Shown here: positions 1,338-64,000 of the stretch, piece by piece
How positions within the stretch are numbered: the first letter of the stretch is position 1
How the letters are laid out: every line of letters starts with the position of its first letter
From: a virus
Direction: 5' to 3' (one strand)
DNA length: 64,000 nucleotides
Virus record (IMG/VR): IMGVR_UViG_3300032893_000735
Coordinates: 41,826-105,825 of that record
Notes under the pieces: model-generated
What the model was told of the DNA's origin: nothing
Database searches by the model: none
What the model saw: only the letters and a program-made list of their open reading frames with translations
Position numbers and translations under genes: made by a program

Positions 1338-1422
1338 ATTTCGTCCATTTTCTGGATTGCTTCGTCCTGTTCTCTCAGTTGATCTGGCTAGGCCGGGTAT
1401 CGTCGTGCTCACAGCGTCAGCG

Positions 1423-4128
1423 CTACTGGAAGCAGCGCACATTGTACGTTTTTGCTGTAGGCGTGGCGCTTGTTCCGCCGTAATTCCAAACGAGCACTGC
1501 CACTGTGTTTGTGCCGTTTCCATAAGCCTGAACGACGAATGGATAGCCAGGGCCGGCGGATCCATCTGTGGCGGTCGCAACACAATTCATGCCGGACGTT
1601 GCTCCAGTCACTGTGACAGCCGCGCTGGTATTGCTACCCGATGGAACGCTCGATCCGCCGATGCTTGAGCTGGTCCCCGTAAGAGGGGCGATGTAGTTAT
1701 TCACGGCCACCCACGAGGATCCGTTGTAAATCCATCCGTAGGTTGTTCCCGCGCTCAAAGCGTCGCGAACAAAGTCGCCCTGTTGGTATCCGGTTCCCGA
1801 ACTCGGAATAGATTGCCTAGTCTCAGTGCTGGAGAAAAAGACGCCTGTTCCTCCGCTCACGGTTTGCGCATAGGTACGACCGGATATTGGATCAAAAATC
1901 GAGGACCCATGCGGAGGATAATTTGGCGATGACATGCTGAGCGTAATCGGGTTGGAGTAGCTGAAATTCGGAACCTTAACGCTAAAGAACGGCGAGGATG
2001 TGGAGAAAACAACATACGGGGTCAAAGATGAAGGGCTTCCCGTATAGCTAATATCATCACCATTGAATCGAAGGCCGCTCCCTGCGTTGTCTCCACTTGC
2101 TCCAAGAAAATATGTTCCATAAACCATCGTCGGCGTCGTTTGTGTGTCCGAAATTACGTTGTTCTCTGCTACCGAACCAGACCATGCTGTCACGGTGCTG
2201 ATCGTAATTCCAGACTGCCAAAGGGAAAAACAAAAGCTGGACGCGCTTCCGTTTCGCTGGCCGGGATTATGAATATGGTTCCCCGAGATATCCAAATCAG
2301 TGACCGTCGAGAGTGGCTGAATCGTGATGCCTGAACACAGTGGGCTTTCGATGGTGTTTCCGATAATAGACACGTTCGCCAGCGGGGTCGCATTCGATCC
2401 CGACAGAGCGATGCCCGCAGAAAAGCTATTGGTCGCCAGCGTGTCTGCGACGAATCGAATGTTGTTGTTCTCGATGTGGACATTCGTCAAACCGTAGGTG
2501 CTTGCCGGAAAGAGAGCAACTCCCGATTCGTCATTGGAAACCGACCAGGGATTGGCACCTCGGTTCACGCTGATGATGTTTCCGGTTATGTTCAACCCGT
2601 CATAACTCCCGTCCGTAGCCCAGATCGAAACTCCTCGATTCACATTCGAGCAGGTGTTTCCGATCACATTGAGGTCATGAACGACGGATTCATTTGCACT
2701 CGTGGCAACGCATGCCCTGTAGTTTTGGATAACATTGCCGCTGACGATCTTCGAATCCTGGTGCACCTCGATTGCGGTTCGCACCCCAATTCCCGCGGCT
2801 TGAAACGTGTTTCCCTCCACGATCCCGCCTGTCCCCGTCAGATAAATCTCCGAGGAGTCATGGTCGTAGGTTCCACCGATCCCCATGTTGGACCAATGAT
2901 TGTTGATGATCGAACAGTTATTGCACAAGTTGAGCGAAACCGTCTGAACGTCGTTCCCATTGATGAACTTTACGTTTTGAACCGTGACATTATGCGCCGT
3001 CCCGCCATTTATCTGAAAGGCGATGTGCTCATTTGCGCCGATTGGGTTGCTGTTCACTGCGTTGTTCGCGGCGTTCCCATCGATGGTCAGGTTTTCGATG
3101 GTCACGTTTGCGGGCGAACCGCTGAAATCGAACAACGCCCGATAGTTGCCGAGTGAATTTCCAATCTTGATTGTTCCGCTTCCGGTGAAGCCGATATTGT
3201 TGTAAGGGATCGTGTAAATATAGCCGCCCGGTGAGGGATTTGAGCCGATGACACACACAGTGGAATCGGGTATGTAAATTCGCACCGGGACAGTATAGGC
3301 TCCCCCCGCCGTGATCGCTGCCCCAATCGCCGCGCGGTCGTCCGTTGAGCCGTCGCACTTCGCTCCATAAGCCGCGTTGCGAATGTCGATTACCGGCGTC
3401 ACGGCAGAGATCGCATTCGCAGCCGCGACGGTACTAAAGTTGGCAGGTCCAGGAGTTCCCGTCTGCCCGATGCTGGAGGGGTTAATCGCGTTTCCATCTA
3501 CGACGGCGGTAGCCGCGCCTTGAGCATTATTCTGCCCAGTCCCGCCTAAAGGAATCGAAATAGGGTAAGACGGGGCGGTTGAAGAATTGGCGCAAACATT
3601 CGGAATGACCTGGGACCCTTGCCCAGGCGCGGATATAGTCTCAGTTACACAATAGTTCAGAGGGATATAGTACCCGTAGTTCCCGTTCGAGTCAGTTGTC
3701 ACTGAGCTAGAGGCGATAGGAACAGACAAAGCTGGGTCAGAATAAATAGTCGCCCCAGACCCCGTACCCGTAACCGTAACCCTAACCGTAGCATAAGGAG
3801 CCACCTGAGCGGTGATAGTATTCGTCCCGCGCATCAGGACTTGGTTAGTCCGATGGTAACCTCCTGTCGCTTGCTGGGCCAGTCCGAAAAATGGACAAAG
3901 TAAAATAAGTAGTAGTAAAAGTTTCTTCACAATCCCTCTGTCTAGTTCCGGAGTTACTTGTTCTGTGGACAAATCTCGGAGGATAATCTCCGCCAGTCTC
4001 GCTTCGTTCTCATGTTCAGCAGCTATTGCTTTGTACCCATTGTGTCGAGCCATCCCAGCTTCCCGTATTGATTTCTGGCGATGGCCCGAAACGAACAACC
4101 TGACTCGCTCCAAAACTTCGAACGTCAT
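1423..4128 (-). CDS. Tailspike/depolymerase-like right-handed beta-helix protein (pectate-lyase-3-like); probable start GTG 3930 with signal-peptide-like N-terminus
   Basis: YGAKCDGSTDDRAAIGAAI motif followed by repeated IxGNxI beta-helix turns; GAGGG RBS before GTG at 3930. Confidence 0.8.
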   Translation of the reverse strand: MTFEVLERVRLFVSGHRQKSIREAGMARHNGYKAIAAEHENEARLAEIILRDLSTEQVTPELDRGIVKKLLLLLILLCPFFGLAQQATGGYHRTNQVLMRGTNTITAQVAPYATVRVTVTGTGSGATIYSDPALSVPIASSSVTTDSNGNYGYYIPLNYCVTETISAPGQGSQVIPNVCANSSTAPSYPISIPLGGTGQNNAQGAATAVVDGNAINPSSIGQTGTPGPANFSTVAAANAISAVTPVIDIRNAAYGAKCDGSTDDRAAIGAAITAGGAYTVPVRIYIPDSTVCVIGSNPSPGGYIYTIPYNNIGFTGSGTIKIGNSLGNYRALFDFSGSPANVTIENLTIDGNAANNAVNSNPIGANEHIAFQINGGTAHNVTVQNVKFINGNDVQTVSLNLCNNCSIINNHWSNMGIGGTYDHDSSEIYLTGTGGIVEGNTFQAAGIGVRTAIEVHQDSKIVSGNVIQNYRACVATSANESVVHDLNVIGNTCSNVNRGVSIWATDGSYDGLNITGNIISVNRGANPWSVSNDESGVALFPASTYGLTNVHIENNNIRFVADTLATNSFSAGIALSGSNATPLANVSIIGNTIESPLCSGITIQPLSTVTDLDISGNHIHNPGQRNGSASSFCFSLWQSGITISTVTAWSGSVAENNVISDTQTTPTMVYGTYFLGASGDNAGSGLRFNGDDISYTGSPSSLTPYVVFSTSSPFFSVKVPNFSYSNPITLSMSSPNYPPHGSSIFDPISGRTYAQTVSGGTGVFFSSTETRQSIPSSGTGYQQGDFVRDALSAGTTYGWIYNGSSWVAVNNYIAPLTGTSSSIGGSSVPSGSNTSAAVTVTGATSGMNCVATATDGSAGPGYPFVVQAYGNGTNTVAVLVWNYGGTSATPTAKTYNVRCFQ

Positions 4129-4140
4129 GCGGCCTCTAAT

Positions 4141-4860
4141 CTAGTGAGTATTATGGTAGAGTTCAGATCCCCATACGGCAGGTTCTATAAGCCGAGTTCC
4201 CATGCTAACTCCGTTCCAGGTTTTCTTCAGGGCACAGATAGTTCCTGAACAAGGGGCTGGGAACAGATAAGAATGGAACTTGGTTTGGAAATCCCCAGTG
4301 GTCTTCCCGAGATTATATGTAACGGTATTAGTGTTGTGTAGGGTTTGGGTTATGTCAGGCGAGGAGACTAATTTATCGAAATCGTATATGGACTTGTGTA
4401 GCATGTCCAGGTTGTCGTCTAATCTATTTTCAGTTTGAGGCAGGTTAACCAGAGCCCGGTGGGCATCCCCGCCGATAGTATTCATCTGGGTTTGGGTATC
4501 TTGGATCAGGCCAGTTGCGGTTTGAATGGTGCTTCGAAGGTCAACTACTCCGCCGTTCAGGTTGTCGAACAAAACTTGGCCGTGACCGTCCCAAGTAGAC
4601 ATCTGCTGCTGTTCGTGTCGTGCGACCAAATCGGTATGGACGACCAAAGACCGAGACTCATTAATCAGTTTGTCCGCGAGAACAATCGTCTCGTCGGCCT
4701 TGCTGATCGTCGTGTCCATTTTCTGGACGACAGGCGCGGCTTCGGATACGATAGCCTTGGACCGCTGTCCGACTCCACCCCACTCCCAAGTGGCCCAGGT
4801 AGCCATCGCTACCAAGGCCAGCAAGAAGATTCCAATCGAATTTAAGATATATTTGTTCAT
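4141..4860 (-). CDS. Membrane-anchored coiled-coil protein (spanin-like or MCE-like)
   Basis: N-terminal TM helix followed by a long heptad-rich region. Confidence 0.45.
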   Translation of the reverse strand: MNKYILNSIGIFLLALVAMATWATWEWGGVGQRSKAIVSEAAPVVQKMDTTISKADETIVLADKLINESRSLVVHTDLVARHEQQQMSTWDGHGQVLFDNLNGGVVDLRSTIQTATGLIQDTQTQMNTIGGDAHRALVNLPQTENRLDDNLDMLHKSIYDFDKLVSSPDITQTLHNTNTVTYNLGKTTGDFQTKFHSYLFPAPCSGTICALKKTWNGVSMGTRLIEPAVWGSELYHNTH

Positions 4861-5198
4861 TACTTCTTAATGAGAGCCGTATACTGCGGGATGTCCTTAA
4901 TCAAGGCTTCGACGGCCTGAATAACATTGATATCGAATCCAGTATTTTGCAGTTTGGCGGACGCAGCCGAGTCCCCAGCGTGCATAATAGCAGCTACATC
5001 GCCGAGAATAGCATACGCCAGTTTCTCAATAGGAAGTGCAATCGCACCATACGTAGGCACGGCTGCGGTCACTGCTTCAACCGTAGACTCAGTGGCCTGA
5101 ACTTTCTGGATACCAGCCTCGACCTTGGGTTCGTCAGCCTTAACCTTCTCGAAAACTGTTGCGAAAAAATGTCCTACTGTTTTAAACGGATTAGTCAC
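4860..5198 (-). CDS. Hypothetical protein
   Basis: GAGGAG RBS; translationally coupled to the next gene. Confidence 0.65.
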   Translation of the reverse strand: MTNPFKTVGHFFATVFEKVKADEPKVEAGIQKVQATESTVEAVTAAVPTYGAIALPIEKLAYAILGDVAAIMHAGDSAASAKLQNTGFDINVIQAVEALIKDIPQYTALIKK

Positions 5199-5446: not shown

Positions 5447-5767
5447 TTACATTCCAGGAGCAGCCGTCGGAGTCGCGGGGGCAGATTGAGGCACGGCGGC
5501 TGCGGCGGGAGGACCGGCTGGAGCGGCTTGTGCGGATTGGTCGGGAACATTCTGGTCTATATGAGCCAAAAGAGCTGCCTTATCTGGTAGAACATGTTCC
5601 TCATCTTCAGGAGTAGTACCGTCGTCAGCAGGGGCGAACTTGTGGCGGACAATGTGCCCGCCTGACTTGCCATGCCTAATGTGGATCTCGTGTGGGTGCT
5701 TACCCTTGCTGGACGACTTCTTACCCCCGCCCATTCCCGCCTTGCTGCGGCTTGATTCGTTCTTCAT
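5447..5767 (-). CDS. Hypothetical protein (basic N-terminus, Ala/Pro-rich C-terminus)
   Basis: AAGGA RBS; fits the operon. Confidence 0.65.
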   Translation of the reverse strand: MKNESSRSKAGMGGGKKSSSKGKHPHEIHIRHGKSGGHIVRHKFAPADDGTTPEDEEHVLPDKAALLAHIDQNVPDQSAQAAPAGPPAAAAVPQSAPATPTAAPGM

Positions 5768-5797
5768 TGGTTATCCTTTGTCCAGAAAATGGACGGG

Positions 5798-6007: not shown

Positions 6008-7102
6008 TTAGTTACATGTTGAGCAATTCGGCCAAGTTCCGGAAGTACAATCCCCGAGTTGACCCGATGTTTTCCAACATACTCCGTGTCCAGCCGTGGG
6101 TGTTCCAGAGATCCCTGGGACTCCTAAATTCGTCCTCGCACCTGCCGCCGTAGTTGCTCCTGTGCCGCCGTTGTAAACTGCCGCAGATGTATTGACATTG
6201 GAACCTGACACATTAGGGGTGATCGAATCGGGCGAGATGTACGTGTAAGCGGCCCCCGCCGAGAGACCGTAGTTCATATCCACGCCATTCAGAAGGTTTG
6301 GCGTGCCCGCTGTGTTCGTGTTCGTGAAGGCCACGTTTGCTGTGCCTCCGCCATTCGTCAACAAAGCTCCGGATATAATCATCTGGCCGCTTTGATTCGT
6401 AAGGTTAGCCGTTGCCGATGCCGTGCTCAGTTCGGTGTTGATAAATACAGCCACGGAGCTAGCACCGTTCTGCGTGACAAGCGCCGTACCGGTTAGCCCG
6501 TTGAAATACGGCTGTCCTCCGGTGATCGTAATCGTGCCCGCTGCTTGAACGCTGATGAACTGCGGCGATCCTCCCTGGATCGTAAGATTCGTGTTCAGAG
6601 CCCCGCCAATCCTCGCCGATTGAACCGCACCGGTGTAGGCGTAAGTAACATTCGTGGCCGTGGTGGTGAAGTTGAATAGCGTTGTCGGGCCATTTAGCGT
6701 GATGTTCCCTGTTACCGTTACCGCGCACCCATTCCCGTTGATCGTGGCCGCATAAGCAGGAAATGAAATGTTTCCCGTATACGTGTACGGAGTAGACGTG
6801 GGAGTGCAATTTATCACGAATGGTTCTGTCAGTGCCGATACGGCAGGAAGGAGAGTTGTCAGTGACTTGAACGGATAGGAGATCGATCCATTTTCAGTGT
6901 AACTATCTGCCCTCGTGCCGTCAAGATAAAATGTCGCTACCGGAGTCGTACCAGTCCCTATTCCAGCTCCGTATATAACACCACCCACATAAACATTCCC
7001 GACAACTCCGAGATTTGTGTATGGATAGTTCGTTGTCTGTCCGAATAATGGACTAGCCGCGAGAATCAGCAAGAAAAGAATAGATGCGAGAGTCTTTTTC
7101 AT
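6008..7102 (-). CDS. Thr/Gly-rich beta-solenoid, tail-fibre-like protein with signal peptide
   Basis: N-terminus MKKTLASILFLLILAASPLFGQ; tail-fibre-type motif GGTGATTAAGARTNLG; Cys-rich end. Confidence 0.7.
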   Translation of the reverse strand: MKKTLASILFLLILAASPLFGQTTNYPYTNLGVVGNVYVGGVIYGAGIGTGTTPVATFYLDGTRADSYTENGSISYPFKSLTTLLPAVSALTEPFVINCTPTSTPYTYTGNISFPAYAATINGNGCAVTVTGNITLNGPTTLFNFTTTATNVTYAYTGAVQSARIGGALNTNLTIQGGSPQFISVQAAGTITITGGQPYFNGLTGTALVTQNGASSVAVFINTELSTASATANLTNQSGQMIISGALLTNGGGTANVAFTNTNTAGTPNLLNGVDMNYGLSAGAAYTYISPDSITPNVSGSNVNTSAAVYNGGTGATTAAGARTNLGVPGISGTPTAGHGVCWKTSGQLGDCTSGTWPNCSTCN

Positions 7103-7106: not shown

Positions 7107-7733
7107 CTACAGCCTCGTAATAGCGAATTCTGTTACGGTGACTGTGTTGCTTCCGCCACCTGAAAAAGTAAATGATGGGATGAAGTTAAGGTCAGAGATA
7201 GACAAACCGGAAACACTAGCCGTGTTGCTGACGGCCACGACTGACCCGTTCATATACTGAGCAGCGGCTCCGAAACTCAGGATCTTGGTTGTCGAGTCCC
7301 ATAGGAATTGAGCCTTGAGCCAGAAGTTGATACTGGCTGACGACGTAATCCCAGAAGTTGCCGTACCTGTTACAATATTTGTGCATCCAGTTCCCAAAGT
7401 TCCGATGGTATAGTTCTTAGAGTACGGACCTTCGGACCAAGTTGACTTCTTTGCGTTGTAAAGATTAACCAGACAGTTTGTAGTAGTGGCCCCCGAGATT
7501 GTACCCGCCATCTGGACCTCAAACGGGTGACCGTCGAAAACATCAGGAGAAACATCAGGCGGTACGCTGATAAAAAGTCCAACAGGGTAGGTAGTTGTAG
7601 ACAGAGGGAACAATGGAGAAGGAAATCTAGAGTATACCCCGGATGCCGAAGGAGCGAGCAAAGGAGTCTCTGAAGTTCCCGAGACTACTTGCGTGTAGTT
7701 ACGAATTCCGTAGGAGGTATCCGAGCGGCTCAT
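7107..7733 (-). CDS. Beta-rich putative structural protein, paralog of 8902..9534
   Basis: Shared blocks FPLSTTTYPVG, FDGHPFEV, DLNFIPSFTF. Confidence 0.75.
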   Translation of the reverse strand: MSRSDTSYGIRNYTQVVSGTSETPLLAPSASGVYSRFPSPLFPLSTTTYPVGLFISVPPDVSPDVFDGHPFEVQMAGTISGATTTNCLVNLYNAKKSTWSEGPYSKNYTIGTLGTGCTNIVTGTATSGITSSASINFWLKAQFLWDSTTKILSFGAAAQYMNGSVVAVSNTASVSGLSISDLNFIPSFTFSGGGSNTVTVTEFAITRL

Positions 7734-7761
7734 TTATCCTTCAATCTGTCCACAAAATGGA

Positions 7762-8118
7762 CTAAACAGAATACCAAATAAACAATCTTGTTCCGGTTGC
7801 TGTAAGTCCCGTAACCGCAAAATCACGCCAGTTTACCCTGCCCATAACAGCAGGTTCCGAGTCTACAATAAGTTCCGTGTTGGCGGGGGAAGCAGAAGGA
7901 ACGACCAACGGAGGATACAAAGTTGAACTGTCAGAGGGGGCGGTGATAGTTACGGTACCTGCGGTAGACGCTCCGCCGGGACCGACGGCCAGAACGAGCT
8001 TGGATACTCGGATTCCACAACCCTGAGTACAGTTGGTCGAAGTCACCGCAGCGGCATTCCGAAATGTCGTTATATCTGTATCTATCACAATCGGTGAAGT
8101 ATTCAGAGAGTTCGCCAA
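7762..8118 (-). CDS. Putative structural protein
   Basis: AGGAG RBS, TTG start, beta-rich. Confidence 0.65.
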   Translation of the reverse strand: MANSLNTSPIVIDTDITTFRNAAAVTSTNCTQGCGIRVSKLVLAVGPGGASTAGTVTITAPSDSSTLYPPLVVPSASPANTELIVDSEPAVMGRVNWRDFAVTGLTATGTRLFIWYSV

Positions 8119-9534: not shown

Positions 9535-9642
9535 TTATTGATTCCTTTATAGTTGTGGGGTGATTTGTCTGGGGCCTAGAATCAGCCCCACGTTGCGCAG
9601 GCCCGAACCGGGTCTCGATTAGTGTCCAGAAAACGGACAAGA

Positions 9643-9724
9643 TGGAGCGGAAGACGAGATTCGAACTCGCATGTCTAAGACGGTTGCTTGGAAGGCAACG
9701 GCTCTACCACTGAGCGACTTCCGC
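9643..9724 (-). tRNA. tRNA-Gly(TCC) with 12-nt variable arm
   Basis: Anticodon arm GTTGC-CTTCCAA-GCAAC, T loop TTCGAAT, encoded CCA. Confidence 0.9.
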
Positions 9725-9729
9725 GAACT

Positions 9730-9807
9730 TGGTCCCCGAAGACGGACTTGAACCGCCCACCTAGCGGTTATCGACCGCTTGCTCTTGTCAAGATGAGCTA
9801 TTCGGGG
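9730..9807 (-). tRNA. tRNA-Ile(GAT)
   Basis: AGCGG-TCGATAA-CCGCT; CCA. Confidence 0.85.
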
Positions 9808-9808
9808 A

Positions 9809-9882
9809 TGGTGCCGAATAAGAGATTCGAACTCCTGTCTTCTGGGTGTAGACCAGAGGCCCTGCCTTTAGGCGAACTCGGC
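9809..9882 (-). tRNA. tRNA-Val(TAC)
   Basis: TCTGG-TCTACAC-CCAGA; CCA. Confidence 0.88.
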
Positions 9883-9887
9883 AAAAC

Positions 9888-9962
9888 TGGTGATCGCAGA
9901 CAGAATCAAACTGTCATATCAGGCTTCGGAGACCTGCGCTCTGTTCTTTGAGCTATGCGACC
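9888..9962 (-). tRNA. tRNA-Arg(CCG)
   Basis: CAGGT-CTCCGAA-GCCTG; CCA. Confidence 0.85.
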
Positions 9963-9966
9963 AAAC

Positions 9967-10042
9967 TGGAGATCCCGCCGAGACTCAAACTCGGGTCTGA
10001 AGTTTAGGAAACTACTGCTCTATTCTCCTGAGCTACGGGACC
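9967..10042 (-). tRNA. tRNA-Arg(CCT)
   Basis: Loop TTCCTAA; CCA. Confidence 0.85.
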
Positions 10043-10048
10043 GAAACT

Positions 10049-10124
10049 TGGAACTCCTGGAGGGAGTCGAACCCCCGACCTAGACTTTAGAAAAATCCCG
10101 CTCTTCCGTCTGAGCTACAGGAGC
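10049..10124 (-). tRNA. tRNA-Arg(TCT)
   Basis: Loop TTTCTAA; T loop TTCGACT; CCA. Confidence 0.88.
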
Positions 10125-10128
10125 AAAC

Positions 10129-10203
10129 TGGTAGACCGCCAGAGACTCGAACTCTGTCCAAGACGCGGTAAAAGCACGTTATGCACCCTCACACTCACGG
10201 TCC
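10129..10203 (-). tRNA. tRNA-Lys(TTT)
   Basis: ACGTG-CTTTTAC-CGCGT; divergent D arm; CCA. Confidence 0.75.
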
Positions 10204-10209
10204 AAAACT

Positions 10210-10285
10210 TGGTGCGTCCAGAGGGAAACGATCCCCCGACCTTCTCATTAAGAGTGAGTTGCTCTACCAACTGAGCTATGGACGC
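10210..10285 (-). tRNA. tRNA-Lys(CTT)
   Basis: Canonical D arm AGCTCAGTTGGTAGAGC; loop CTCTTAA; CCA. Confidence 0.9.
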
Positions 10286-10286
10286 A

Positions 10287-10379
10287 TGGTAGGCGATGAG
10301 TGAGTTGAACACTCCCGTTGCGCTAATCTGGCGCTTTCCCGAGTCTATAAGTCTCAGCCGCACACCGATGCTATCGCCC
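10287..10379 (-). tRNA. Long-variable-arm tRNA with TAT anticodon (nominally Ile)
   Basis: Acceptor GGGCGAT/ATCGCCT, loop CTTATAG, variable arm GCGC-CAGATTA-GCGC, CCA. Confidence 0.75.
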
Positions 10380-10386
10380 GTAAACT

Positions 10387-10457
10387 TGGTGCCAAAGCGG
10401 GGAATCAAACCCCTCATTCCGCTTTATGAGGGCAGATGCCGAATCATCGGCCTTGGC
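10387..10457 (-). tRNA. tRNA-CAT (Met or Ile2) with reduced D arm
   Basis: Loop CTCATAA; CCA. Confidence 0.7.
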
Positions 10458-10462
10458 AAAAC

Positions 10463-10537: not shown

Positions 10538-10538
10538 G

Positions 10539-10613: not shown

Positions 10614-10622
10614 ATTTTAAAA

Positions 10623-10696: not shown

Positions 10697-10697
10697 A

Positions 10698-11962: not shown

Positions 11963-11963
11963 T

Positions 11964-54424: not shown

Positions 54425-55173
54425 TACACTATCATGGGTGTCCGATTACTCCAGAGGCGGACGGGGCCAGAATCCTGAAAGGAAAACATGCTATGGTTTC
54501 CTTCGCCCATCCGTCTCAGTTGCCAATGGTGGCGGAGGTTTGCCAGTCGTTTTGCTTGGACAATGGGGCTTTCTCCGCTTGGAGGTCGGGTGATCCTGTT
54601 ACTGATTGGTCAAAATTTTATGAATGGGTAGAATTTTGGTACCGTAATCCAGGATTTGATTTTGTACTCATACCAGACGTAATTGAAGGAAGTGAGGGAG
54701 ATAATGACAGATTGATCCAAGAATGGCCGTTCTCTAGAACAGTAGGGGTACCGGTTTGGCATCTTCATGAATCTCTGGATAGACTTGAAAAGTTAGTAAA
54801 TGAATGGCCTAGAATCTCTTTCGGAAGTTCGGGGAGATACGAAAGGGTAGGTGATCGTATTTGGTGGGGCCGTATGAGTGAGGCTATGCGAGTATGCTGC
54901 GACGATCTTGGAAGACCGAAATCTAAACTTCATGGTCTTAGGATGCTAGACCCTGCGGTGTTCACTAAACTTCCGTTTTCCAGTGCAGACAGCACGAATG
55001 TAGCAAGAAACGTAGGCATAGATAAGAACTGGGAAGGTTCGCGCTACGCGCCAAAAAGTAAGACAATTCGAGGTTTGATACTTGCTGACAGAGCCGAGCA
55101 ATTCAATTCAGCCTCAGTATTCACAAAATTCGAATTTCAACCGACTTCTATCTTCGATTTTGAGGAACAGTGA
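54421..55173 (+). CDS. DpdA/TGT-like base-exchange transglycosylase
   Basis: LDNGAFS, IPDVI, PVWH, LHGL, SADST motifs; coupled to queD. Confidence 0.65.
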   Translation: MIHYHGCPITPEADGARILKGKHAMVSFAHPSQLPMVAEVCQSFCLDNGAFSAWRSGDPVTDWSKFYEWVEFWYRNPGFDFVLIPDVIEGSEGDNDRLIQEWPFSRTVGVPVWHLHESLDRLEKLVNEWPRISFGSSGRYERVGDRIWWGRMSEAMRVCCDDLGRPKSKLHGLRMLDPAVFTKLPFSSADSTNVARNVGIDKNWEGSRYAPKSKTIRGLILADRAEQFNSASVFTKFEFQPTSIFDFEEQ

Positions 55174-55877
55174 TGAACGAACCTGAATACCTAGTACCAG
55201 TAAAAACTGATGCACTTCAGCTCGGGGAGGATATCAACGTCCTCCTCGGGCAAATTTCTAGCCACGAACTACGCCTCAGTCATTCTTACGCCCGTCTCGG
55301 GTCGCTACTTCTCCGCGCCAAAAACGAACAAGCCTGGACATTGCTGGGGTATGATCGGTTCTCCCTGATGATCGAAGATATTGGTAAGAAGATCGACCGG
55401 CGCAGGAGCCAGATGTACGCTATCCTGTCCGTTGCGGAAGTCCTGTCTCCGTATCTTTCCGAGCCACAGCTTGAGGCAATCGGGATCGCTAAGAGCCACG
55501 AATTGCGCAGGTTCGTTAAGCAATCAGGACGCAGGCCGGATGTTCACCTTCTGGACATGATTAAGACTCCTGAAGAAGACCCGATCACCTTGTCCGAACT
55601 CGCTGCTTCTTCTGAAATCACCGCCGCTCAACTCCGAGTCGAAGTGAACAAACTGCTCCATCAGGACGAACAACCGAAAGGTTTGTGGTACGATCTAGGA
55701 GGATGCTACTTCCTTCCTGACGAGAAGAAAGAAGTAGAACAGTTTTGGTCAGTAGGCCGGATGCTACTTGAAATCTCAGACGAGACTTCTGAGCACGAAG
55801 CCAAGAAACAAGTTATGTTGGCGGCAGTCCGCGAGTGCTTGGGTACTTGGCAGGCCGAGGTGGACAATGCGAATTGA
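55170..55877 (+). CDS. Hypothetical protein (possible HTH DNA-binding)
   Basis: GAGG RBS; helical LGY..F...RRRSQMY segment. Confidence 0.6.
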   Translation: MMNEPEYLVPVKTDALQLGEDINVLLGQISSHELRLSHSYARLGSLLLRAKNEQAWTLLGYDRFSLMIEDIGKKIDRRRSQMYAILSVAEVLSPYLSEPQLEAIGIAKSHELRRFVKQSGRRPDVHLLDMIKTPEEDPITLSELAASSEITAAQLRVEVNKLLHQDEQPKGLWYDLGGCYFLPDEKKEVEQFWSVGRMLLEISDETSEHEAKKQVMLAAVRECLGTWQAEVDNAN

Positions 55878-56068
55878 GTGGATCGAACATCTTTGGGCTA
55901 AAGTATTCGGATATTTCTGGATGCCTTGTCCAAATTGTGGTCGCATGTACGGCGGGCATGAAGATGGCGGTGGCCTATACAAGTCAGTCTGGTCTGATTA
56001 CGCCGTTCCTACTTGCGCTGATCCTAAGTGCAAGGAAGAAGTTCACGAGAAGAACAAAAGGCTTTTTG

Positions 56069-56461
56069 ATGAGTATTAAGTGGGTTCGGGTACTAATAGG
56101 CCCAGAAGGCCGACCAATTCGGATTTTTCGTAACAAGGACTGGCTGGATTTTCCAGTAGAGCAAGTCCCACTTATGACCAAAGCCGAGGCCGTAGGTTCT
56201 ATCCGAGAGCAAGTTTTTGAGCGGGCAAGAAATCCAGAAACTAGACAGTTCGAGTGCGAGAACTGCGGGAGAGTTATTACTCGGGCGAACGGAGAGATGA
56301 ATGAACGCCGACCGAAAGGTGCTCGCGGAGGATTTACCGGAGGCGAGGTGTCGCTAGACAACTGCGAGGCGCTATGCCACTCTTGCCACCAGTCAGGCCC
56401 TGACTCCCGACATGGAGATCGACGCTGGCAAACAGCAAAACTAAGGACAACCAATGATTGA
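56069..56461 (+). CDS. HNH-like nuclease
   Basis: CENCG...GG...NCEALCHSCH. Confidence 0.65.
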   Translation: MSIKWVRVLIGPEGRPIRIFRNKDWLDFPVEQVPLMTKAEAVGSIREQVFERARNPETRQFECENCGRVITRANGEMNERRPKGARGGFTGGEVSLDNCEALCHSCHQSGPDSRHGDRRWQTAKLRTTND

Positions 56462-56972
56462 TGTACTGAAATTCCAACACGTAATCAAAGACGTAATCAC
56501 CAAGACCAAGGTTCCTCCGAACAAGGTCGAGGATCTTACTCAAGAATGTTACTTGTCTTTGATCGAACAACAAGACCTTATTGAAAAGGCTAGGAGTCCT
56601 GAGGATTATGCTGCCTCCGTCTGCCGAAGCAAGATTTATCAGGTTTGGAAGCAAGAAAACGATATTAGCCGGGTAGACGGAAAGAACTACAAACCGGACA
56701 TCTGGTTCTTATCCTTGTCCGACCCTAAGATATACCAGAAGGTAGCTAAGATCGCTTGCCAGAGAACAGACATAACCGACGAAGAACTTTATTCTGGTAT
56801 TTTGCAATTACCTCTTGACGAAGCCCAGGTTATCTATGGTATATTTGTCGAAGGGTTGAAGAAGAAGGATTTAGCCGAGCAGCTTGGGATTGGAATACGG
56901 AGGCTTAATACTCGGCTGAGACGTGGAATTAAAAATCTGAAGGAATACTTCGAGGTGGTGGATGGGGATTAG
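56454..56972 (+). CDS. ECF-like sigma factor
   Basis: Region 2 EDLTQECYL; region 4 LP....VI.....EG....DLAEQLGI.......LRR. Confidence 0.78.
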   Translation: MIDVLKFQHVIKDVITKTKVPPNKVEDLTQECYLSLIEQQDLIEKARSPEDYAASVCRSKIYQVWKQENDISRVDGKNYKPDIWFLSLSDPKIYQKVAKIACQRTDITDEELYSGILQLPLDEAQVIYGIFVEGLKKKDLAEQLGIGIRRLNTRLRRGIKNLKEYFEVVDGD

Positions 56973-57288
56973 AAACACAACCGAAGTTAGTTGTGATTTT
57001 AAAGGATGCAATCTCGGTCATGGCGGCGGGCCTGTTGTACTGTCTTGGTGCAACGAAGATGTTTCTTCTGGAAAGGTTCCGCCGCCTACTGGTTCGGAGA
57101 CTTTTGTGACTCTAACTCTTAACGGAGCACATCTTGCGTTTTGCTCCCGACTTCATGCAGCGGAATTCTTTCTGCCGGATATGTACGAAATTAAGCAGAA
57201 GGGGTTGGTGGAGTTCCCGAAAGACAAATGGACTGGACCAGAGGTTAGTCCAGAAAATGGACAGGAGGTCCCAAGTGCCGAAGTTTAG
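56962..57288 (+). CDS. Hypothetical Cys-containing protein
   Basis: GAGGTGG RBS. Confidence 0.6.
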   Translation: MGIRNTTEVSCDFKGCNLGHGGGPVVLSWCNEDVSSGKVPPPTGSETFVTLTLNGAHLAFCSRLHAAEFFLPDMYEIKQKGLVEFPKDKWTGPEVSPENGQEVPSAEV

Positions 57289-57903: not shown

Positions 57904-58075
57904 GAGGGTAAGTGAGTCCGATTTACAACTACTCGTGTTTGGAATGCGGCAAGAAGATTGAAAAGCTGGTCAAGACTAGAGAGGAGCCTCCATACTGTCC
58001 AGATTGCGGACTTCCTACTGTTCAGGTTTGGAGTGCGCCAAGTCCAGCGCAATGGAAATGTTCTAAGGGGTCTTT

Positions 58076-58537
58076 ATGAGCAAGAAGCCGAAGACAAAAG
58101 CACAACTCGACCGAGCCGCCGATCTGAGACTCAAGAAGACGTATAACATTTCATTGGCGGACTACGATTATCTTCTGAATAAGAACGAGGGGAAGTGCTG
58201 GATCAGTGGGAAAGACCCAGGAACTCGGCGGCTACATGTTGATCACGACCACCGATGGAAGAAAGTTACGATCCGAGCAACTAAGTATGGAGACACTTGG
58301 GAGGCGACCGGAACCTATAACGGGGTCACATACAAAACCTTTGGAGCCAAGAAATCTCTCGCGGTTAGGGATCTGAAACGGAAGCTGCTACGGGCAAGTG
58401 TCCGTGGCTTACTCTCATACTCGTCAAATGCCGGTTTGCAAAAGTTCTCCGATGACCCAGAACAACTCCGGTCCGCCGCAGATTATCTCGAAAACTTTCA
58501 ACAAGGTAGTCCATTATCTGGACGGGAGGCAGAATGA
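58076..58537 (+). CDS. Endonuclease VII-like Holliday junction resolvase
   Basis: YNIS..DY; LHVDHDH; VRGLL...N.GL..F.DDP..L..A..YL. Confidence 0.8.
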   Translation: MSKKPKTKAQLDRAADLRLKKTYNISLADYDYLLNKNEGKCWISGKDPGTRRLHVDHDHRWKKVTIRATKYGDTWEATGTYNGVTYKTFGAKKSLAVRDLKRKLLRASVRGLLSYSSNAGLQKFSDDPEQLRSAADYLENFQQGSPLSGREAE

Positions 58538-58989
58538 ACTGGTTCTGGAAGAAGAAGAAAGAAGAGCAAGATAAACCAGAGGATGAAATTGAATACTATG
58601 CTTGCTTTTCATGCGAAAACGGACACTGCCAAGATTACAAAATAGAAACGGACTACGTTCCACTTCTCAATAAGATTGAAGTTTGTGAGAAGTGCGGTGA
58701 GAGTTCGTTCCCATCTGTTTGTAAAGTAACAAAAACACATGTTCTACGTCTTGGTAGGTGTTGGGTTCCGAGGCGATCTGAAGGAACATTTGTCCGTTTT
58801 CTGGACAACGAAGATGAAGTAACCCTTTCAGAAGAATCAGTCACCTATCTCAAGAAGTTGTCCGGCCGAGAGTTTGCCGATGCTGATAAAGACTCTTCGG
58901 CATCCTACAAGAACGGACTCACAGACGGATGCACTATGACGGCTCAATACGTGTTGAGAGAACTGAAGGACGAGGAGACTAATGCCTAA
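58534..58989 (+). CDS. Hypothetical protein
   Basis: GGAGG RBS after a palindrome copy. Confidence 0.65.
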   Translation: MNWFWKKKKEEQDKPEDEIEYYACFSCENGHCQDYKIETDYVPLLNKIEVCEKCGESSFPSVCKVTKTHVLRLGRCWVPRRSEGTFVRFLDNEDEVTLSEESVTYLKKLSGREFADADKDSSASYKNGLTDGCTMTAQYVLRELKDEETNA

Positions 58990-60127
58990 GACGGTTCCGG
59001 TACCCTATGACATTCGGAAGGAAATCCACAAGGTCCATAGTCTGGACCCAGGTCGAAGTGCGCGTAAAATCGCTAAGGAGTTCGGGCTGCACCATAAGAC
59101 TGTTAGTCGAATCCTGAGAAACGGAGATTCGTGCGAACCGGTTGTCGAAGTAGAAGAACCTATCCGTCACGAATCTATTCTTCGGCTTCTCAAGAAAGGG
59201 CCTCGTTCGACAGAGGAACTAGCAGCATCTTTGTCTAGTTCCGTTCAAAACGTGTCGAAAACTATCGGAGAGATGAAGGAACGCGGGGCTATGTTGATCC
59301 AGACCGCGAATGGACTCCACGACCTCGCCGATAGTATTCTTCTTGAACCAGGAAGCGGGCAGGTGGATGGAACAAGTGATTATTGGACGCACGTATTCGG
59401 GTTCACTTCTGATAATCATTTGTGCAATCGTAACTCTCGTCTGGATGTGCTGAACTCCGCCTACGACCACTTCGAACGCGAAGGTGTTCGAATCGCCTAT
59501 AACGCCGGAAATTGGATCGACGGAGAGGCGAGATTCAACAAGACAGAATTGGTTACCGCTCCGGGTATGGACCACCAACTTGACTATCTGATTGACAACT
59601 TTCCGGAACGTGACGGAATTGAAACACATTACATCGCGGGAGATGACCACGAGGGGTGGTATCAGCAAAGAGAGGGAATCGAGATAGGCAAGTACCTTCA
59701 GATGAGGGCGGAAGAACAAGGAAGAACCGACCTCAAATATCTTGGGTACGGAGAGGCCGATGTCAAGCTATCTTTCGGGACAGGCTCCGCCGTTATGCGT
59801 GTCGTTCACCCTGGCGGCGGTTCTGCTTACGCAATTTCCTACACCGATCAGAAACGTGTAGAATCTTACCAAGGCGGAGAGAAGCCGCAAATTGAACTTG
59901 TCGGGCACTACCATAAGTTTAACCATGGTTATCCCCGAGAAGTCCACACTGTCCAAGGGGGGACAACTTGCGATCAGAGTATGTTTATGCGAAAGAAGAG
60001 GTTGCAAGCTCACGTTGGATACTGTATCATCAAGATCAAGCAAGATGATACTGGAGTTGTTACCCGATTCTCTGTTGAATGGTTCCCTTTTTTCGACAGA
60101 GGGTTTTATGAGAAGAGGTTTGCATAG
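58982..60127 (+). CDS. Calcineurin-like metallophosphoesterase with N-terminal HTH domains
   Basis: SDNH, AGN..DG, GDDH, HP, GHYH. Confidence 0.85.
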   Translation: MPKTVPVPYDIRKEIHKVHSLDPGRSARKIAKEFGLHHKTVSRILRNGDSCEPVVEVEEPIRHESILRLLKKGPRSTEELAASLSSSVQNVSKTIGEMKERGAMLIQTANGLHDLADSILLEPGSGQVDGTSDYWTHVFGFTSDNHLCNRNSRLDVLNSAYDHFEREGVRIAYNAGNWIDGEARFNKTELVTAPGMDHQLDYLIDNFPERDGIETHYIAGDDHEGWYQQREGIEIGKYLQMRAEEQGRTDLKYLGYGEADVKLSFGTGSAVMRVVHPGGGSAYAISYTDQKRVESYQGGEKPQIELVGHYHKFNHGYPREVHTVQGGTTCDQSMFMRKKRLQAHVGYCIIKIKQDDTGVVTRFSVEWFPFFDRGFYEKRFA

Positions 60128-60153
60128 TCCAGAAAATGGACAGGAGGAAAAAG

Positions 60154-61011
60154 ATGGTTCCGATTGTAATTTATCACGGCAACTGTGCCGACGGATTTTC
60201 CGCAGCCTGGGCTGTTTGGAAGGCGCGTCCGTCATACGAGTTCTTTGCTGGTAAGTATCAGGAAGACCCTCCAGATGTGACTGGACGAGATGTGTATTTT
60301 GTAGACTTCTCGTACAAGAGGAATGTTATTCTTGAGATGTCGAAGAAGGCTCGGAGCATTATCGTACTCGACCACCACAAATCTTCGCAGGAAGACCTCG
60401 TTGATTTGCCCAGCAACGTGTCTGTGTATTTTGACATGAACCGTTCAGGGGCTCATATTGCCTGGGATCATTTCCATCCAGGAGAACCAGCACCTCCGCT
60501 GCTTCTTCGGGTCGAAGACAGAGATTTGTGGAAGTTCAGCTATCGAGATACGAAAGGAATTTCCGCTTATCTGTTTAGCCAGCCGTATGATTTTAAGCAA
60601 TGGGACTTCCTCATGAGGCTGTCCGAAGATGAGCATGATCTAGAGGAGATGGAGTCCTACGGAAATGTCATTTTGAAGAAGCAGGCCAAGGATATTGACG
60701 AAATCCTTCAGAACAAGTTTAGAATCAACCTTAATGGATCAGAAGTCTGGTGCGCAAACCTTCCTTATATGTGGCGCTCTGAGGCCGGACACATCTTGTC
60801 TAAGGACGAACCTTTTGCGGCTACGTTCTACACGGACGGAAAGTATGTAATCTTTAGCCTTCGATCTGCGGAGGATGGTTCGGATGTCTCAGAAGTGGCG
60901 AAGAAGTTTGGAGGCGGCGGGCATAAACACGCCGCTGGATTCAAAGTTACCTTCGAAGAGTTTGTCCGAATAATGGACGGGAGGAAAGATGAAAAAGCTA
61001 TTCAAGTTTAG
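60154..61011 (+). CDS. DHH/DHHA1 phosphoesterase (NrnB-like)
   Basis: YH.NCADG, VDFS, LDHH, DRDLW, SLRS, GGGGHKHAAG. Confidence 0.9.
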   Translation: MVPIVIYHGNCADGFSAAWAVWKARPSYEFFAGKYQEDPPDVTGRDVYFVDFSYKRNVILEMSKKARSIIVLDHHKSSQEDLVDLPSNVSVYFDMNRSGAHIAWDHFHPGEPAPPLLLRVEDRDLWKFSYRDTKGISAYLFSQPYDFKQWDFLMRLSEDEHDLEEMESYGNVILKKQAKDIDEILQNKFRINLNGSEVWCANLPYMWRSEAGHILSKDEPFAATFYTDGKYVIFSLRSAEDGSDVSEVAKKFGGGGHKHAAGFKVTFEEFVRIMDGRKDEKAIQV

Positions 61012-62370: not shown

Positions 62371-62827
62371 GCAACATCACGACTAAAACAGTGAGAGGTT
62401 GACATGACACAGAAACTGAATCCATATGATCCGGCTGCAATGAGGCGAGCTGCGCCAAAGCACACACCGAAACCTGTTCGCGGCCTGAGCCCCTATCAGG
62501 GACCAATCGGGAAAACCAAGTAGCGTCGCGATCAGCACTACAATACTGGAAGATGTAGAGCAGCAATAACCGTCCAGAAAATGGACGAGGAGGAAAGATG
62601 AAGCCAAGGCTTTTGACTGAGAAAGAACTGAACACTGTTCGCGGAAAGGCGATGGTCGGCCACGCGACAACAGACGAGATCATGTCCGTATTTACGCACT
62701 ACGATATGATCGAGATGATGTTAGACGAGGGCAGACGAAGACGATTGTCTCGGTACTGAAGGGTGGCGTCATTGGATGGGGTTACCTGACGCGGAATAAA
62801 TAGTCCATTTTCCAACAAGGAGGAAGT

Positions 62828-63163: not shown

Positions 63164-63711
63164 TGAAGAGGATTCTTTCCGTAGTATTTTGCTTGGTGGT
63201 ATCTTTTGCGTTTGCTGGTTGCTCTACAGAAGAGCATAAATCCGCAGATCAGAAGATTTCGGAACAGCAAGAAAGTATGCAGACGCAAGCAATGTCCCAA
63301 ACTGGAATGCCCGGGATTACAAACTTTACCGAACTCAAGCTCGTAAAACATCTCTATGAGTTGAGGGACCAGAAGATTGTCACTTATTCGTATGTTCCCG
63401 ACATGAACGGCAAACTGTGGCATCTCTGCGACTCTATTGGCTACGGCATACCCTACGCCGCGCAATTTTCAAACTCTGAAAAGTTTGCGGGTGGATACGT
63501 TACAGATTCAGCAGGGCATCAATGGAGTGTTTCTGGTACTCTGCCGCAATCGGAACCAAATGGCTTGTTCATGCCCGCAGCAGCGGAGGGTACTTGGATT
63601 ACATGTGTCGATCCGAGTGGAAATGGACAGATTCAACCGGTGTACGTCGAACCTCGCGTGATCGTCAGTCCGTTTAAGTTGCGTGCAGAAGGTGAATACG
63701 CTTTGAAGTAG
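63163..63711 (+). CDS. Lipoprotein
   Basis: Lipobox FAGC; SIGYGIPY; QSEPNGLF.P...EGTW; YVEP. Confidence 0.8.
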   Translation: MKRILSVVFCLVVSFAFAGCSTEEHKSADQKISEQQESMQTQAMSQTGMPGITNFTELKLVKHLYELRDQKIVTYSYVPDMNGKLWHLCDSIGYGIPYAAQFSNSEKFAGGYVTDSAGHQWSVSGTLPQSEPNGLFMPAAAEGTWITCVDPSGNGQIQPVYVEPRVIVSPFKLRAEGEYALK

Positions 63712-63730
63712 TCCATTTTTCGGACATAGA

Positions 63731-63773
63731 AAAGCCCCGGCTCTCAAGAACTTCGAGGGTCGGGGCTTTGTTT
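63731..63773. terminator. Bidirectional intrinsic terminator between convergent genes
   Basis: AAAGCCCCG.CTCTC-loop-GAGGG.CGGGGCTTT. Confidence 0.75.
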
Positions 63774-63776
63774 GTG

Positions 63777-64000
63777 TCAATCGGAGTACAAATCGTAGGC
63801 TTCGACCACCTTCTTAACAACCGGGTGCCTGACCACATCCTTGTCCGTAAAATGGACAACCGCTACTTCTGGGACGTTGCGCTTTAGTCTCTTGGACAAG
63901 TGGGCTCCGTTTGTTAAAGTTTGGTTAATGAGGGTTGTTTTGGGCGACGGTATCACTCTATACAGTATAGGAACCTTGAAATAATCCAACAGGATACTTG
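63777..64000 (-). CDS. phoH: PhoH-like protein, C-terminal fragment
   Basis: VHFTDKDVVRHPVVKKVVEAY is a typical PhoH C-terminus; the upstream part is uncertain. Confidence 0.6.
   Translation of the reverse strand, partial: SILLDYFKVPILYRVIPSPKTTLINQTLTNGAHLSKRLKRNVPEVAVVHFTDKDVVRHPVVKKVVEAYDLYSD

Follow-up and report, generated by a model that had tools for sequence, protein, structure and literature searches.

The stretch of DNA analysed here (hereafter the window) is the right-hand 64 kb, G000:C1:41826-105825, of the 105,825-bp record of an uncultivated wetland phage, called G000 in the comparisons below. Its genes are encoded on the minus strand up to about position 16.8 kb of the window and on the plus strand beyond it, and both transcription arms are dotted, between genes as well as inside them, with copies of a short interrupted near-palindrome, GTCCA-N5-TGGAC. 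The window contains 26 exact copies of this motif, against 0.05 expected from dinucleotide-preserving shuffles (none of 100 reached 26), and 54 sites with at most one arm mismatch, against 1.96 expected. This recount of 26 perfect and 28 near-perfect copies agrees with the 26 and about 27 counted in a first-pass annotation, which had been made from the letters alone. The array covers the entire record, as became clear when the whole contig was inspected: 37 perfect and 85 perfect-or-one-mismatch sites are distributed over the 105,825 bp, at a mean interval of about 1.2 kb, and no region is without copies, which occur in the structural arm, in the tRNA cluster and at its edge, in the early region and in the replication arm. 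The copies in the window are listed below with their immediate surroundings (SD, Shine-Dalgarno sequence; G003, one of the related phages introduced after the list).

1343-1357, one mismatch, GTCCATTTTCTGGAT, intergenic
3882-3896, one mismatch (G5), intragenic
4714-4728, perfect, intragenic
5780-5794, perfect, abuts the SD of the minus-strand gene 5447-5767; position kept in G003
7039-7053, one mismatch (G5), intragenic
7748-7762, perfect, abuts the SD of gene 7107-7733 (minus strand)
9624-9638, one mismatch (C11), just past the end of the tRNA cluster
11703-11717, perfect, spacer between tRNA-His and tRNA-Thr
17437-17451, perfect, intergenic
17908-17922, one mismatch (G5), identical with the distal hairpin of the twister-P5 ribozyme 17896-17953
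18941-18955, one mismatch, about 20 nt upstream of the -35 element of a sigma70-like promoter
21758-21772, perfect, same relative position at a second, similar sigma70-like promoter
21989-22003, perfect, intergenic
22821-22835, perfect, contains the TAATG stop/start overlap of genes 22591-22830 and 22830-23993
24365-24379, one mismatch, within the tyrosine recombinase gene
25072-25086, perfect, abuts an SD
26052-26066, perfect, provides a start ATG
26643-26657, perfect, abuts an SD
27623-27637, perfect, within the conserved 732-aa gene 26873-29071
29706-29720, one mismatch, intergenic
30684-30698, one mismatch, within the clamp-loader gene
31130-31144, perfect, TAACC-motif-AAGGAG, left flank of the PRPP synthetase/NAMPT block
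33440-33454, perfect, TAACC-motif-AAGGAG, right flank of the PRPP synthetase/NAMPT block
35460-35474, one mismatch, provides the start ATG of the RecT gene
36310-36324, one mismatch, within the RecT gene; G003 copy at the aligned codon, spacer flipped
37507-37521, one mismatch, abuts an SD, sense-strand spacer T-rich; position kept in G003
38637-38651, one mismatch, within the SSB gene
39310-39324, one mismatch, within a helicase gene; position kept in G003
40269-40283, one mismatch, provides a start ATG
41856-41870, perfect, abuts an SD
43299-43313, one mismatch, within an exonuclease gene; position kept in G003
43760-43774, one mismatch, intragenic
44208-44222, one mismatch, at a gene end
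45519-45533, one mismatch, provides the start ATG of the C5 methyltransferase gene
47349-47363, perfect, abuts an SD
47785-47799, perfect, abuts the SD of the RNA ligase gene
47959-47973, one mismatch, intragenic
48788-48802, perfect, abuts an SD
49623-49637, perfect, within the N-terminal part of the primase-helicase reading frame 49281-51290
51713-51727, perfect, intragenic
52194-52208, one mismatch, intergenic
52824-52838, perfect, within the sliding-clamp-like gene; position kept in G003 with a different spacer
55542-55556, one mismatch, within the candidate binder gene; weak, may be chance
55928-55942, one mismatch, within an HNH reading frame; weak, may be chance
57248-57262, perfect, abuts an SD
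57997-58011, one mismatch, intragenic
58509-58523, perfect, abuts an SD, sense-strand spacer T-rich
58792-58806, one mismatch, intragenic
59033-59047, perfect, intragenic
60127-60141, perfect, abuts an SD
60964-60978, one mismatch, abuts an SD
62572-62586, perfect, TAACC-motif-GAGGAGG-ATG
63711-63725, one mismatch; near-identical copy at genome position 121
63843-63857, one mismatch; near-identical copy at genome position 253

Among isolated phages no close relatives were found, by DNA or by protein, and the DNA of the phage is present in three wetland metagenome DNA runs only. An exact-match scan of IMG/VR with the commonest 15-mer of the array gave several many-copy contigs, and nine related genomes of 60-109 kb were compared with G000; they share 22-67 reciprocal best hits with it at a mean protein identity of 39%-50%. 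The motif is common to at least eight related IMG/VR genomes, in uncultivated phages whose proteins are no more than 30%-55% identical, and seven motif-bearing genomes (G000-G006) provide the counts given below. A literature search for the motif letters returned nothing but unrelated primer matches. A 21-base probe made of motif and SD, run against 185,579 species genomes, revealed no prophage and had one isolated match, in a metagenome-assembled genome of an Acidobacteriota; this assembly carries no second motif copy and no gene in common with the phage, and the match is a chance one.

The core of the motif, TCC...GGA, is nearly invariant, and single mismatches fall almost all at positions 1, 5, 11 and 15. 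The spacer is five bases long in every copy of G000 and six relatives and is A/T-rich, as first described, mainly GAAAA or TTTTC. Read on the A-rich strand, the motif takes the form GTCC[A/G]-N-AAAA-TGGAC, in which the half AAAATGGAC hardly varies (with 54 copies it is the commonest 9-mer of the genome) and the G5..T11 form outnumbers A5..C11 by 93 to 12 in six genomes. Each site therefore combines a strong half, AAAATGGAC, with a weaker one, GTCC[A/G], that is roughly symmetric to it, and the A-tract between them lies off centre. The element that had been described as a palindrome is thus a near-palindrome with an intrinsic polarity and one invariant half, and not a true one. On either side the symmetry continues for two weakly conserved bases (tT-GTCC...GGAC-Aa), beyond which nothing is conserved. 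The half-site centres lie 10 bp, or one helical turn, apart around the central A-tract, within these symmetric weak flanks, a geometry that is typical of protein sites.

The preferred form of the motif differs between the related genomes. Copy numbers below are perfect sites followed by sites with one mismatch allowed.

G000 (this phage), 37 / 85, preferred form GTCCAGAAAATGGAC, spacer GAAAA
G003, 35 / 74, preferred form GTCCATAAAATGGAC, spacer TAAAA
G005, 36 / 68, preferred form GTCCAGATAATGGAC, spacer GATAA
G004 (60-kb fragment), 24 / 53, preferred form GTCCAGAAAATGGAC, spacer GAAAA
G001, 12 / 50, preferred form GTCCGGAAAATGGAC
G002, 7 / 23, preferred form GTCCGGAAAATGGAC
G006, 28 / 50, both arms changed to GTCCG-N5-CGGAC, preferred form GTCCGCAAAACGGAC
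L250/L251, strong half ATAATGGAA (TGGAA), dispersed motif kTCCAGATAATGGAA
L256/L257, about 15 per 20 kb, GTACGGAAAA-YGRA, not self-complementary
G007 (L223-L227), 19 copies of a different palindrome, TTCAC-N3-GTGAA
G008 and G009, no array and no high-copy motif

A second frequent word, TCGCCCGAA/TTCGGGCAA, was noticed in L256/L257. Some copies keep their position in a related phage, a point on which the first-pass annotation had let its reading depend: between G000 and G003, the alignment places 8 of 29 intragenic sites at the same codon, where an estimate from site density gives about 0.6 by chance, and 3 of 10 pre-start sites at the same position, where the same kind of estimate gives about 1. 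Several of the aligned pairs differ in their spacer or carry it flipped, as in RecT, where the two forms are GTCCAGTTTCTGGAA and GTCCGGAAAATGGAC, which indicates that the arms are kept and not the peptide. From this comparison it follows that the element is old, selected as DNA letters rather than as peptide and turning over in position, and that its sequence drifts together with the phage lineage. Since each genome has its own preferred 15-mer, the reader of the motif appears to co-evolve with the phage and to be phage-encoded. A phage or a host protein had both been considered at first; the lineage-specific 15-mers speak for the former, and phage-specific drift makes a host protein unlikely.

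The position of the sites relative to genes and to each other provides further information. In G000, 18 of the 85 sites are followed by an SD at a distance of 0-1 nt and, after another 10-14 nt, by the start codon, an arrangement shown by 0.9% of random positions; about seven further sites contain the start ATG. The earlier description of individual junctions was accurate, both for the order of stop codon, motif and ribosome-binding site at 31130, 33440 and 62572 and for the start ATG or TAATG provided by copies 22821, 45519 and 40269. Nevertheless, the junction cannot serve as the defining property that it had been taken for, since abutment to an SD is lineage-specific: it is found for 21% of sites in G000, 19% in G005, 8% in G003, 4%-9% in G001, G002 and G004 and 0 of 50 in G006. 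About half of the G000 sites are intragenic, the commonest frame reading V-Q-K-M-D, and 28% of the site centres fall into the 8% of the genome that is intergenic. At gene boundaries the sites are in 3-5-fold excess. Intergenic enrichment is 2-5-fold in all seven motif-bearing genomes, and enrichment near gene ends is 2-3-fold in most of them; coding sequence still holds 50%-88% of the sites.

The sites are spread along the DNA more evenly than chance would predict. In six of the seven genomes the gaps have a coefficient of variation of 0.52-0.85, against about 1.0 in simulations that kept each genome's split between intergenic and coding sites, and the Fisher combined P value is 2.8e-9. The polarity of the motif agrees with the direction of transcription in 174 of 278 sites (63%; seven genomes), and both spacer orientations are present in both transcription arms, as had been noted before. 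Genes unique to G000 are as dense in sites as core genes (0.52 vs 0.56 per kb). For this reason the reported absence of copies from the intein, the HNH genes and queD, correct except for the one-mismatch copy at 55928 in an HNH reading frame, is not statistically meaningful, and the notion that mobile DNA avoids the motif was dropped. The motif was also considered as a marker of mosaic junctions and rejected, as it is not enriched at synteny breaks: 12 of 48 junctions between conserved and genome-specific genes carry it, compared with 27 of 92 other junctions (P = 0.69).

A palindrome yields an identical RNA stem from either strand, hence orientation alone cannot decide between a DNA site and an RNA hairpin. 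The array could be an RNA element, a 5-bp stem with a 5-nt loop placed before the ribosome-binding sites of polycistronic mRNAs, where it would act as a processing site, a hairpin protecting mRNA ends, a translation insulator or the target of an RNA-binding protein. The same stem forms whichever strand is transcribed, with a predicted energy of -5.5 kcal/mol for the G000 form; the excess of sites directly before SDs and at start codons fits such a role; and one copy is a functional RNA hairpin within the type-P5 twister ribozyme (17896-17953, plus strand, 57.3 bits with a gathering score of 37.6, between two early genes), which also indicates RNA processing elsewhere in this phage. However, a hairpin would be expected to preserve its pairing through compensatory or wobble changes in the transcript, and these sites do not. 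Of the 93 copies of the G5..T11 form, 59 are oriented so as to give G.U on the mRNA, a share of 63% that holds for all sites alike, with no preference for G.U over A.C on the sense strand, and compensatory doubles (8) are fewer than uncompensated doubles at the same edge positions (28; four genomes). The loop is constant in length, and both loop sequences occur at SD-abutting sites (28 A-rich and 14 T-rich). Additionally, sites that abut an SD are missing from G006 and uncommon in G001, G002 and G004, at least half of the sites of every genome are intragenic, the related motif of L256/L257 is unable to form the hairpin (predicted 0 to -0.8 kcal/mol), and even spacing along DNA has no obvious RNA rationale. 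Taken together, these wobble, compensatory-double, loop, folding and spacing tests favour a DNA-level site, as the first-pass annotation had argued from orientation. We consider the motif a probable DNA-level site at which a protein is predicted to bind, and an RNA element an unlikely substitute for it.

The ribozyme copy at 17908 we read as an opportunistic placement of the DNA site where any hairpin serves. Regarding other ribozymes, a hammerhead candidate at 20019-20107 reaches 20.3 bits, below the gathering score of 37, and there was no match to a hepatitis delta virus-like ribozyme at E <= 1.

tblastn was used to find the proteins shared with each of the five complete relatives that bear the motif, and one of these proteins, the product of 55173-55877, was found to have a predicted fold of the kind that reads specific double-stranded DNA. 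The first-pass annotation had already named it, as 55170, among its candidates. SSB and HNH nucleases make up the rest of the shared proteins with a link to nucleic acids, and for several others no family is assigned. The gene and its neighbours are the following.

55173-55877, plus strand, candidate binder, helical, 234 aa, its helix-turn-helix formed by helices 63-73 and 78-91; found in each of the nine relatives
55874-56461, plus strand, small HNH endonuclease, its start overlapping the stop of the candidate binder; the pair is kept in all nine genomes
56454-56972, plus strand, ECF-like sigma factor with sigma-70 regions 2 and 4, directly after the helix-turn-helix/HNH pair and with no link to the motif

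The protein matches no Pfam or PHROG family, and a profile search of PDB sequences was empty. Among 5.8 billion proteins it has at least 330 homologues, from metagenomes; Pfam assigns no family to any of them, and almost all either lack a name or are labelled 'hypothetical'. An AlphaFold2 model built from ten orthologues (mean predicted local distance difference test score 82) places the helix-turn-helix at residues 63-91. A Foldseek search with this model gave weak rows (E > 0.3), with ParB, Spo0J and Noc among the first. In an exhaustive structural comparison the DNA-binding domains of Spo0J (Z 7.1 over 109 residues), ParB-parS (6.4) and KorB (5.7 and 5.3) were matched, followed in lower rows by SopB (4.9), VirB (4.9) and P1 ParB (4.4), the matches covering residues ~10-165. 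Helical models often score as high as this by chance, so that the argument lies in the recurrence of one family and not in the Z values. Further leads, and leads only, come from the ESM Atlas: DUF3102, DUF1016_N/ParB HTH and DUF222. No N-terminal, cytidine triphosphate-binding domain of ParB was detected by Pfam in the protein, and the structural matches comprise the DNA-binding parts only. The small HNH endonuclease retains its conserved Cys and His residues. The scan of about 100 open reading frames with Pfam or PHROGs found neither a classical repressor family nor ParA. The earlier statement that no classical repressor is visible in the window is correct as far as repressor families go, and should now be read next to the candidate with its predicted ParB/KorB-like fold and the ECF-like sigma factor.

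The start of the predicted recognition helix varies with the motif in the following manner.

R-S-Q/H/A-x-Y, motif ...TGGAC, in G000-G005, L247, L248 and L253
G-R-T, motif ...CGGA(C), in G006 and L256/L257, placed apart from each other on the protein tree
R-K-S, motif ...TGGAA, in L250/L251
G-K-T, motif TTCAC-N3-GTGAA, in G007
K-T-P, no array, in G008, G009 and L258-L265

This covariation is suggestive of a protein changing with its site. Other candidates fared less well. The DpdA/queD block, as a reader or as the source of a modification aimed at the motif, has no tblastn match in any relative, and the motif is family-wide; the C5 methyltransferase, considered in the same two roles, has a match in G003 only, and the tyrosine recombinase and RecT have matches only in G003-G005. 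All of these were dropped because they are not co-distributed with the motif. As for alternative binders, a 189-aa Cys/His protein (genome 23202-23771) consists of a coiled coil and a small beta domain and gave no informative structural match, and two conserved proteins of 106 aa (5447-5767) and 79 aa (22591-22830) had no family matches. The motif is also not the promoter of the phage sigma factor, since a leader could not be accommodated where a copy abuts an SD, and 37% of copies have the wrong orientation.

The explanation that best combines these observations is that a phage-encoded protein, likely the product of 55173-55877, co-evolves with the motif and docks on evenly spaced sites; we give it a probability of roughly 55%. 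A sequence-specific DNA-binding protein of the phage would recognise the motif, protein and site changing together, and the helix-turn-helix protein would be the most likely reader, possibly working with the HNH nuclease whose gene overlaps its stop codon. Selection may then hold the even spacing of about 1.2 kb across the early, replication, tRNA and structural regions, and the array would provide docking points every 1-2 kb by which the whole phage DNA is covered, organised or marked, rather than operators of promoters. Sites may accumulate between stop codons and ribosome-binding sites mainly because 15-19 bp fit there without cost to a protein. Even spacing, presence in all regions, turnover at a kept density and indifference to orientation argue against promoter operators and against silencing of the L5 type. 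Silencing, organising and protecting, the three effects originally proposed, are indistinguishable on the present data. The proposed dimeric reader is retained in part: a protein that binds roughly symmetric halves is plausible, and a simple symmetric dimer is too simple for a polar site with one invariant half.

Several points weigh against this explanation. The covariation between recognition helix and motif amounts to three or four changes, which phylogeny could in part account for. The structural matches are of intermediate quality (all Z below 8). The candidate is without the N-terminal domain of ParB, and its would-be partner ParA was not found in the reading frames scanned. The candidate family occurs also in G008 and G009, which have no dispersed motif, hence the protein alone does not give an array. 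The polarity of the site and the steady 63:37 sense bias are not explained by a symmetric dimer. Finally, the tight fit to SDs in G000 and G005, together with the ribozyme copy, shows that the RNA form exists, and it could matter locally. With these points in mind, the identification of the 55173-55877 product as the reader is tentative, and we would put it at clearly less than even odds.

Local regulatory effects are possible at two early promoters. These promoters, at 18956-19030 and 21775-21850, are sigma70-like, with TTGACA, a spacing of 17 nt and TAATCT or TAGTTT; they have in common an upstream box, AGTTTTCCACA..TTTC.GGC, and a motif copy ahead of each.

A related but more specific idea is that the array constitutes a 'barcode' of the genome, in which even, polar sites are read by the helix-turn-helix protein together with the adjoining HNH nuclease. 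The outcome would be either regular nicks or a bound protein that marks phage as opposed to host DNA for a nuclease, for packaging or for a replication compartment. Such a role of the HNH neighbour, in regular nicking or in distinguishing self from non-self, is possible and is weakened by the occurrence of the gene pair in array-less relatives; we hold the barcode in either variant to be improbable. If true, it would represent sequence-based self-marking in a lytic phage, unlike base modification or Chi sites.

Programmed nicking or cutting can also be considered in its own right. Regularly spaced single-strand interruptions occur in phage T5 and in phiKMV-like Pseudomonas phages, and the helix-turn-helix protein could direct the adjoining HNH nuclease to the motif, producing interruptions of this kind or marking the phage DNA as self for the nuclease. 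The stop-start overlap of the two genes, their conservation as a pair in all nine genomes, the interrupted-palindrome shape of the motif, its intrinsic polarity and its even spacing would all suit such a function, and the ESM Atlas lead to DUF222 points the same way, as this domain is fused to HNH in Actinobacteria. However, the gene pair is present in G008 and G009, cutting of both strands at a near-palindrome would fragment the genome, and the many HNH genes of this genome probably encode homing enzymes for the greater part. We regard this possibility as slightly less probable still than the barcode.

About equally doubtful is stoperator-like silencing, in which the immunity repressor of a temperate phage would sit on the sites and block RNA polymerase across the prophage, as in L5. 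The sites are dispersed and concentrated at gene boundaries, their consensus is genome-specific, and two copies lie upstream of the sigma70-like early promoters; a tyrosine recombinase gene (23990-25081) has homologues in G003, G004 and G005, that is, it is present in four of the seven motif genomes. On the other hand, stoperators are oriented with transcription (PMC4351075), and here the agreement is only 63%. The scan of reading frames gave no repressor family, tblastn found no recombinase in G001, G002 and G006, all of which bear the array, and the probe search revealed no prophage. Moreover, the genome looks lytic: it encodes 22 tRNAs, a sigma factor and, for its own replication, a primase-helicase, a clamp loader and a processivity factor. 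Direct terminal repeats are present in one complete relative. The tRNA cluster comprises its 22 genes at window positions 9643-13292 on the minus strand.

The least probable of all is a site for a host factor, or a short spreading repeat that mediates the exchange of cassettes: the PRPP synthetase/NAMPT block unique to G000 does stand between two identical copies with identical flanks (31130, 33440), and deletions by repeat recombination are known from Cluster O phages (PMC4351075), but junctions of conserved and unique genes are not enriched in the motif, nothing is conserved beyond 2 bp on each side, so that the motif is no mobile element, the motif variants follow phage lineages and a phage protein, and the probe gave a single chance match in bacterial genomes. 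The block itself (31130-33454; PRPP synthetase and NAMPT, for NAD salvage) has no counterpart in the nine relatives and looks like an insertion or duplication at the site, a pattern that is not general across junctions.

Other features of the genome were noted in the course of the analysis. The gene 22830-23993, just upstream of the tyrosine recombinase gene, encodes a product with an N-terminal DUF7666 domain and contains, at 23193-23790, a tandem array of 22 units of 27 bp, each encoding nine residues. In the early region, 20134-20961 (plus strand) encodes ten YdcK beta-solenoid repeats with a bactofilin-like match, and 19536-19871 holds a gene for a pyrimidine-dimer glycosylase. The UvrD-like helicase is split into 39062-40081 and 40466-41311, with about 385 bp between the parts that hold two small reading frames and the copy at 40269; it is a single gene in G002 and G004 (586-593 aa), and the split could represent an intron or another insertion. 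The C5 cytosine methyltransferase gene, 45528-47372, contains an intein with Hint and LAGLIDADG domains, and its G003 homologue of 289 aa is without one. Outside the window, the large terminase (genome 35551-38697; L245:15551-18697, minus strand) has 1048 aa as compared with 672-692 aa in relatives, and its middle gives foreign-looking matches to primase and DnaC-like proteins; an intein or some other insertion is probable here too. Segments of 91% and 99% identity recur at the two ends of the contig (genome 114-287 and 857-986, compared with the last 300 bases, window 63530-64000). These are not a simple terminal repeat, they include two motif copies, and they reflect either a duplication that has since diverged or an overlap in the assembly combined with an insertion.

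Dispersed short repeats have been known in phages since the L5 stoperators, and the Cluster O repeat has been unexplained since 2015. Before these are considered, one class of site can be set aside: the core site of tyrosine recombinases has inverted arms around an overlap region of 6-8 bp, and the motif described here always has a spacer of 5 and occurs in G001, G002 and G006, where tblastn found no recombinase. KorB operators of RK2, Noc sites of Bacillus and parS/sopC are short dispersed palindromes, some of them intragenic or distant from promoters, that are read by ParB-type helix-turn-helix proteins, and the best structural matches of the candidate reader are DNA-binding domains of this type. 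Unlike in those systems, the site is asymmetric and far more frequent (1 per 1.2 kb), the candidate lacks the ParB N-terminal domain, ParA was not found in the reading frames scanned, and the candidate is not assigned to these families by sequence searches. The ParB/KorB pattern is matched only in part.

What defines the start-associated sequences (SAS) of Cluster K phages is that they are tightly tied to translation starts (PMC4351075). In G000 and G005 roughly one copy in five resembles them in lying immediately upstream of an SD and start codon, but this link is lineage-specific, being absent from all 50 sites of G006, and most copies lie elsewhere. The Cluster A stoperators, bound by the L5 repressor gp71, resemble the array in distribution: in both cases tens of sites occupy both arms, those of Cluster A mostly in short intergenic spaces by starts and stops. 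The stoperator consensus is phage-specific and co-evolves with a phage protein. Stoperators are nevertheless asymmetric, oriented with transcription and employed in prophage silencing (PMC4351075). In the array described here orientation is not strict (174 of 278), more than half of the sites are intragenic, a repressor was not found in the reading frames scanned and lysogeny is doubtful, so that L5 was rightly kept as an analogy only.

The nearest described case is the Cluster O repeat, a 17-bp sequence, 5'-TGTTCGG-NNN-CCGAACA, with 34 copies in Corndog, which is presumed to be the site of a dimeric protein and whose function is unknown (Cresawn et al. 2015, PMC4351075). The present array is of the same kind, in unrelated phages. 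Both are short dyad-symmetric repeats with an A/T-rich centre (AAA/TTT there, AAA(A) here) and at least 30 copies genome-wide; both occur between and inside genes, about a third to half of the Cluster O copies lying at gene boundaries (PMC4351075); neither is strictly oriented, the 63:37 bias found here having a counterpart in a slight preference of Cluster O for AAA on the sense strand (PMC4351075); and both are common to related phages, the Cluster O repeat being cluster-wide and absent from the host (PMC4351075). They differ in sequence and geometry (5-5-5, or 7-5-7 with the flanks, as opposed to 7-3-7), and the genomes in question are here those of ~100-kb uncultivated wetland or soil phages with tRNAs and ribozymes. 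The arms vary here, with one strong and one weak half, the copies are evenly spread whereas those of Corndog are denser at one genome end, and the motif can be traced through relatives of 30%-50% protein identity, drifting and even losing its symmetry.

Should the protein-site pair be confirmed, it would provide a simple orthogonal DNA-binding module with natural specificity variants, as well as a way to ask what such arrays do, whether they organise, silence, nick or mark the DNA as self. Strong and weak halves, even spacing, traceable drift and a candidate reader were not reported for Cluster O. Here the array is traceable across a deep clade of uncultivated ~100-kb phages, within which the motif is seen to drift, to change both arms, to lose its symmetry or to disappear, with a named candidate reader changing alongside, and even spacing is added as a new quantitative property of such repeats, one that points to a role in chromosome-wide coverage rather than in promoter control.

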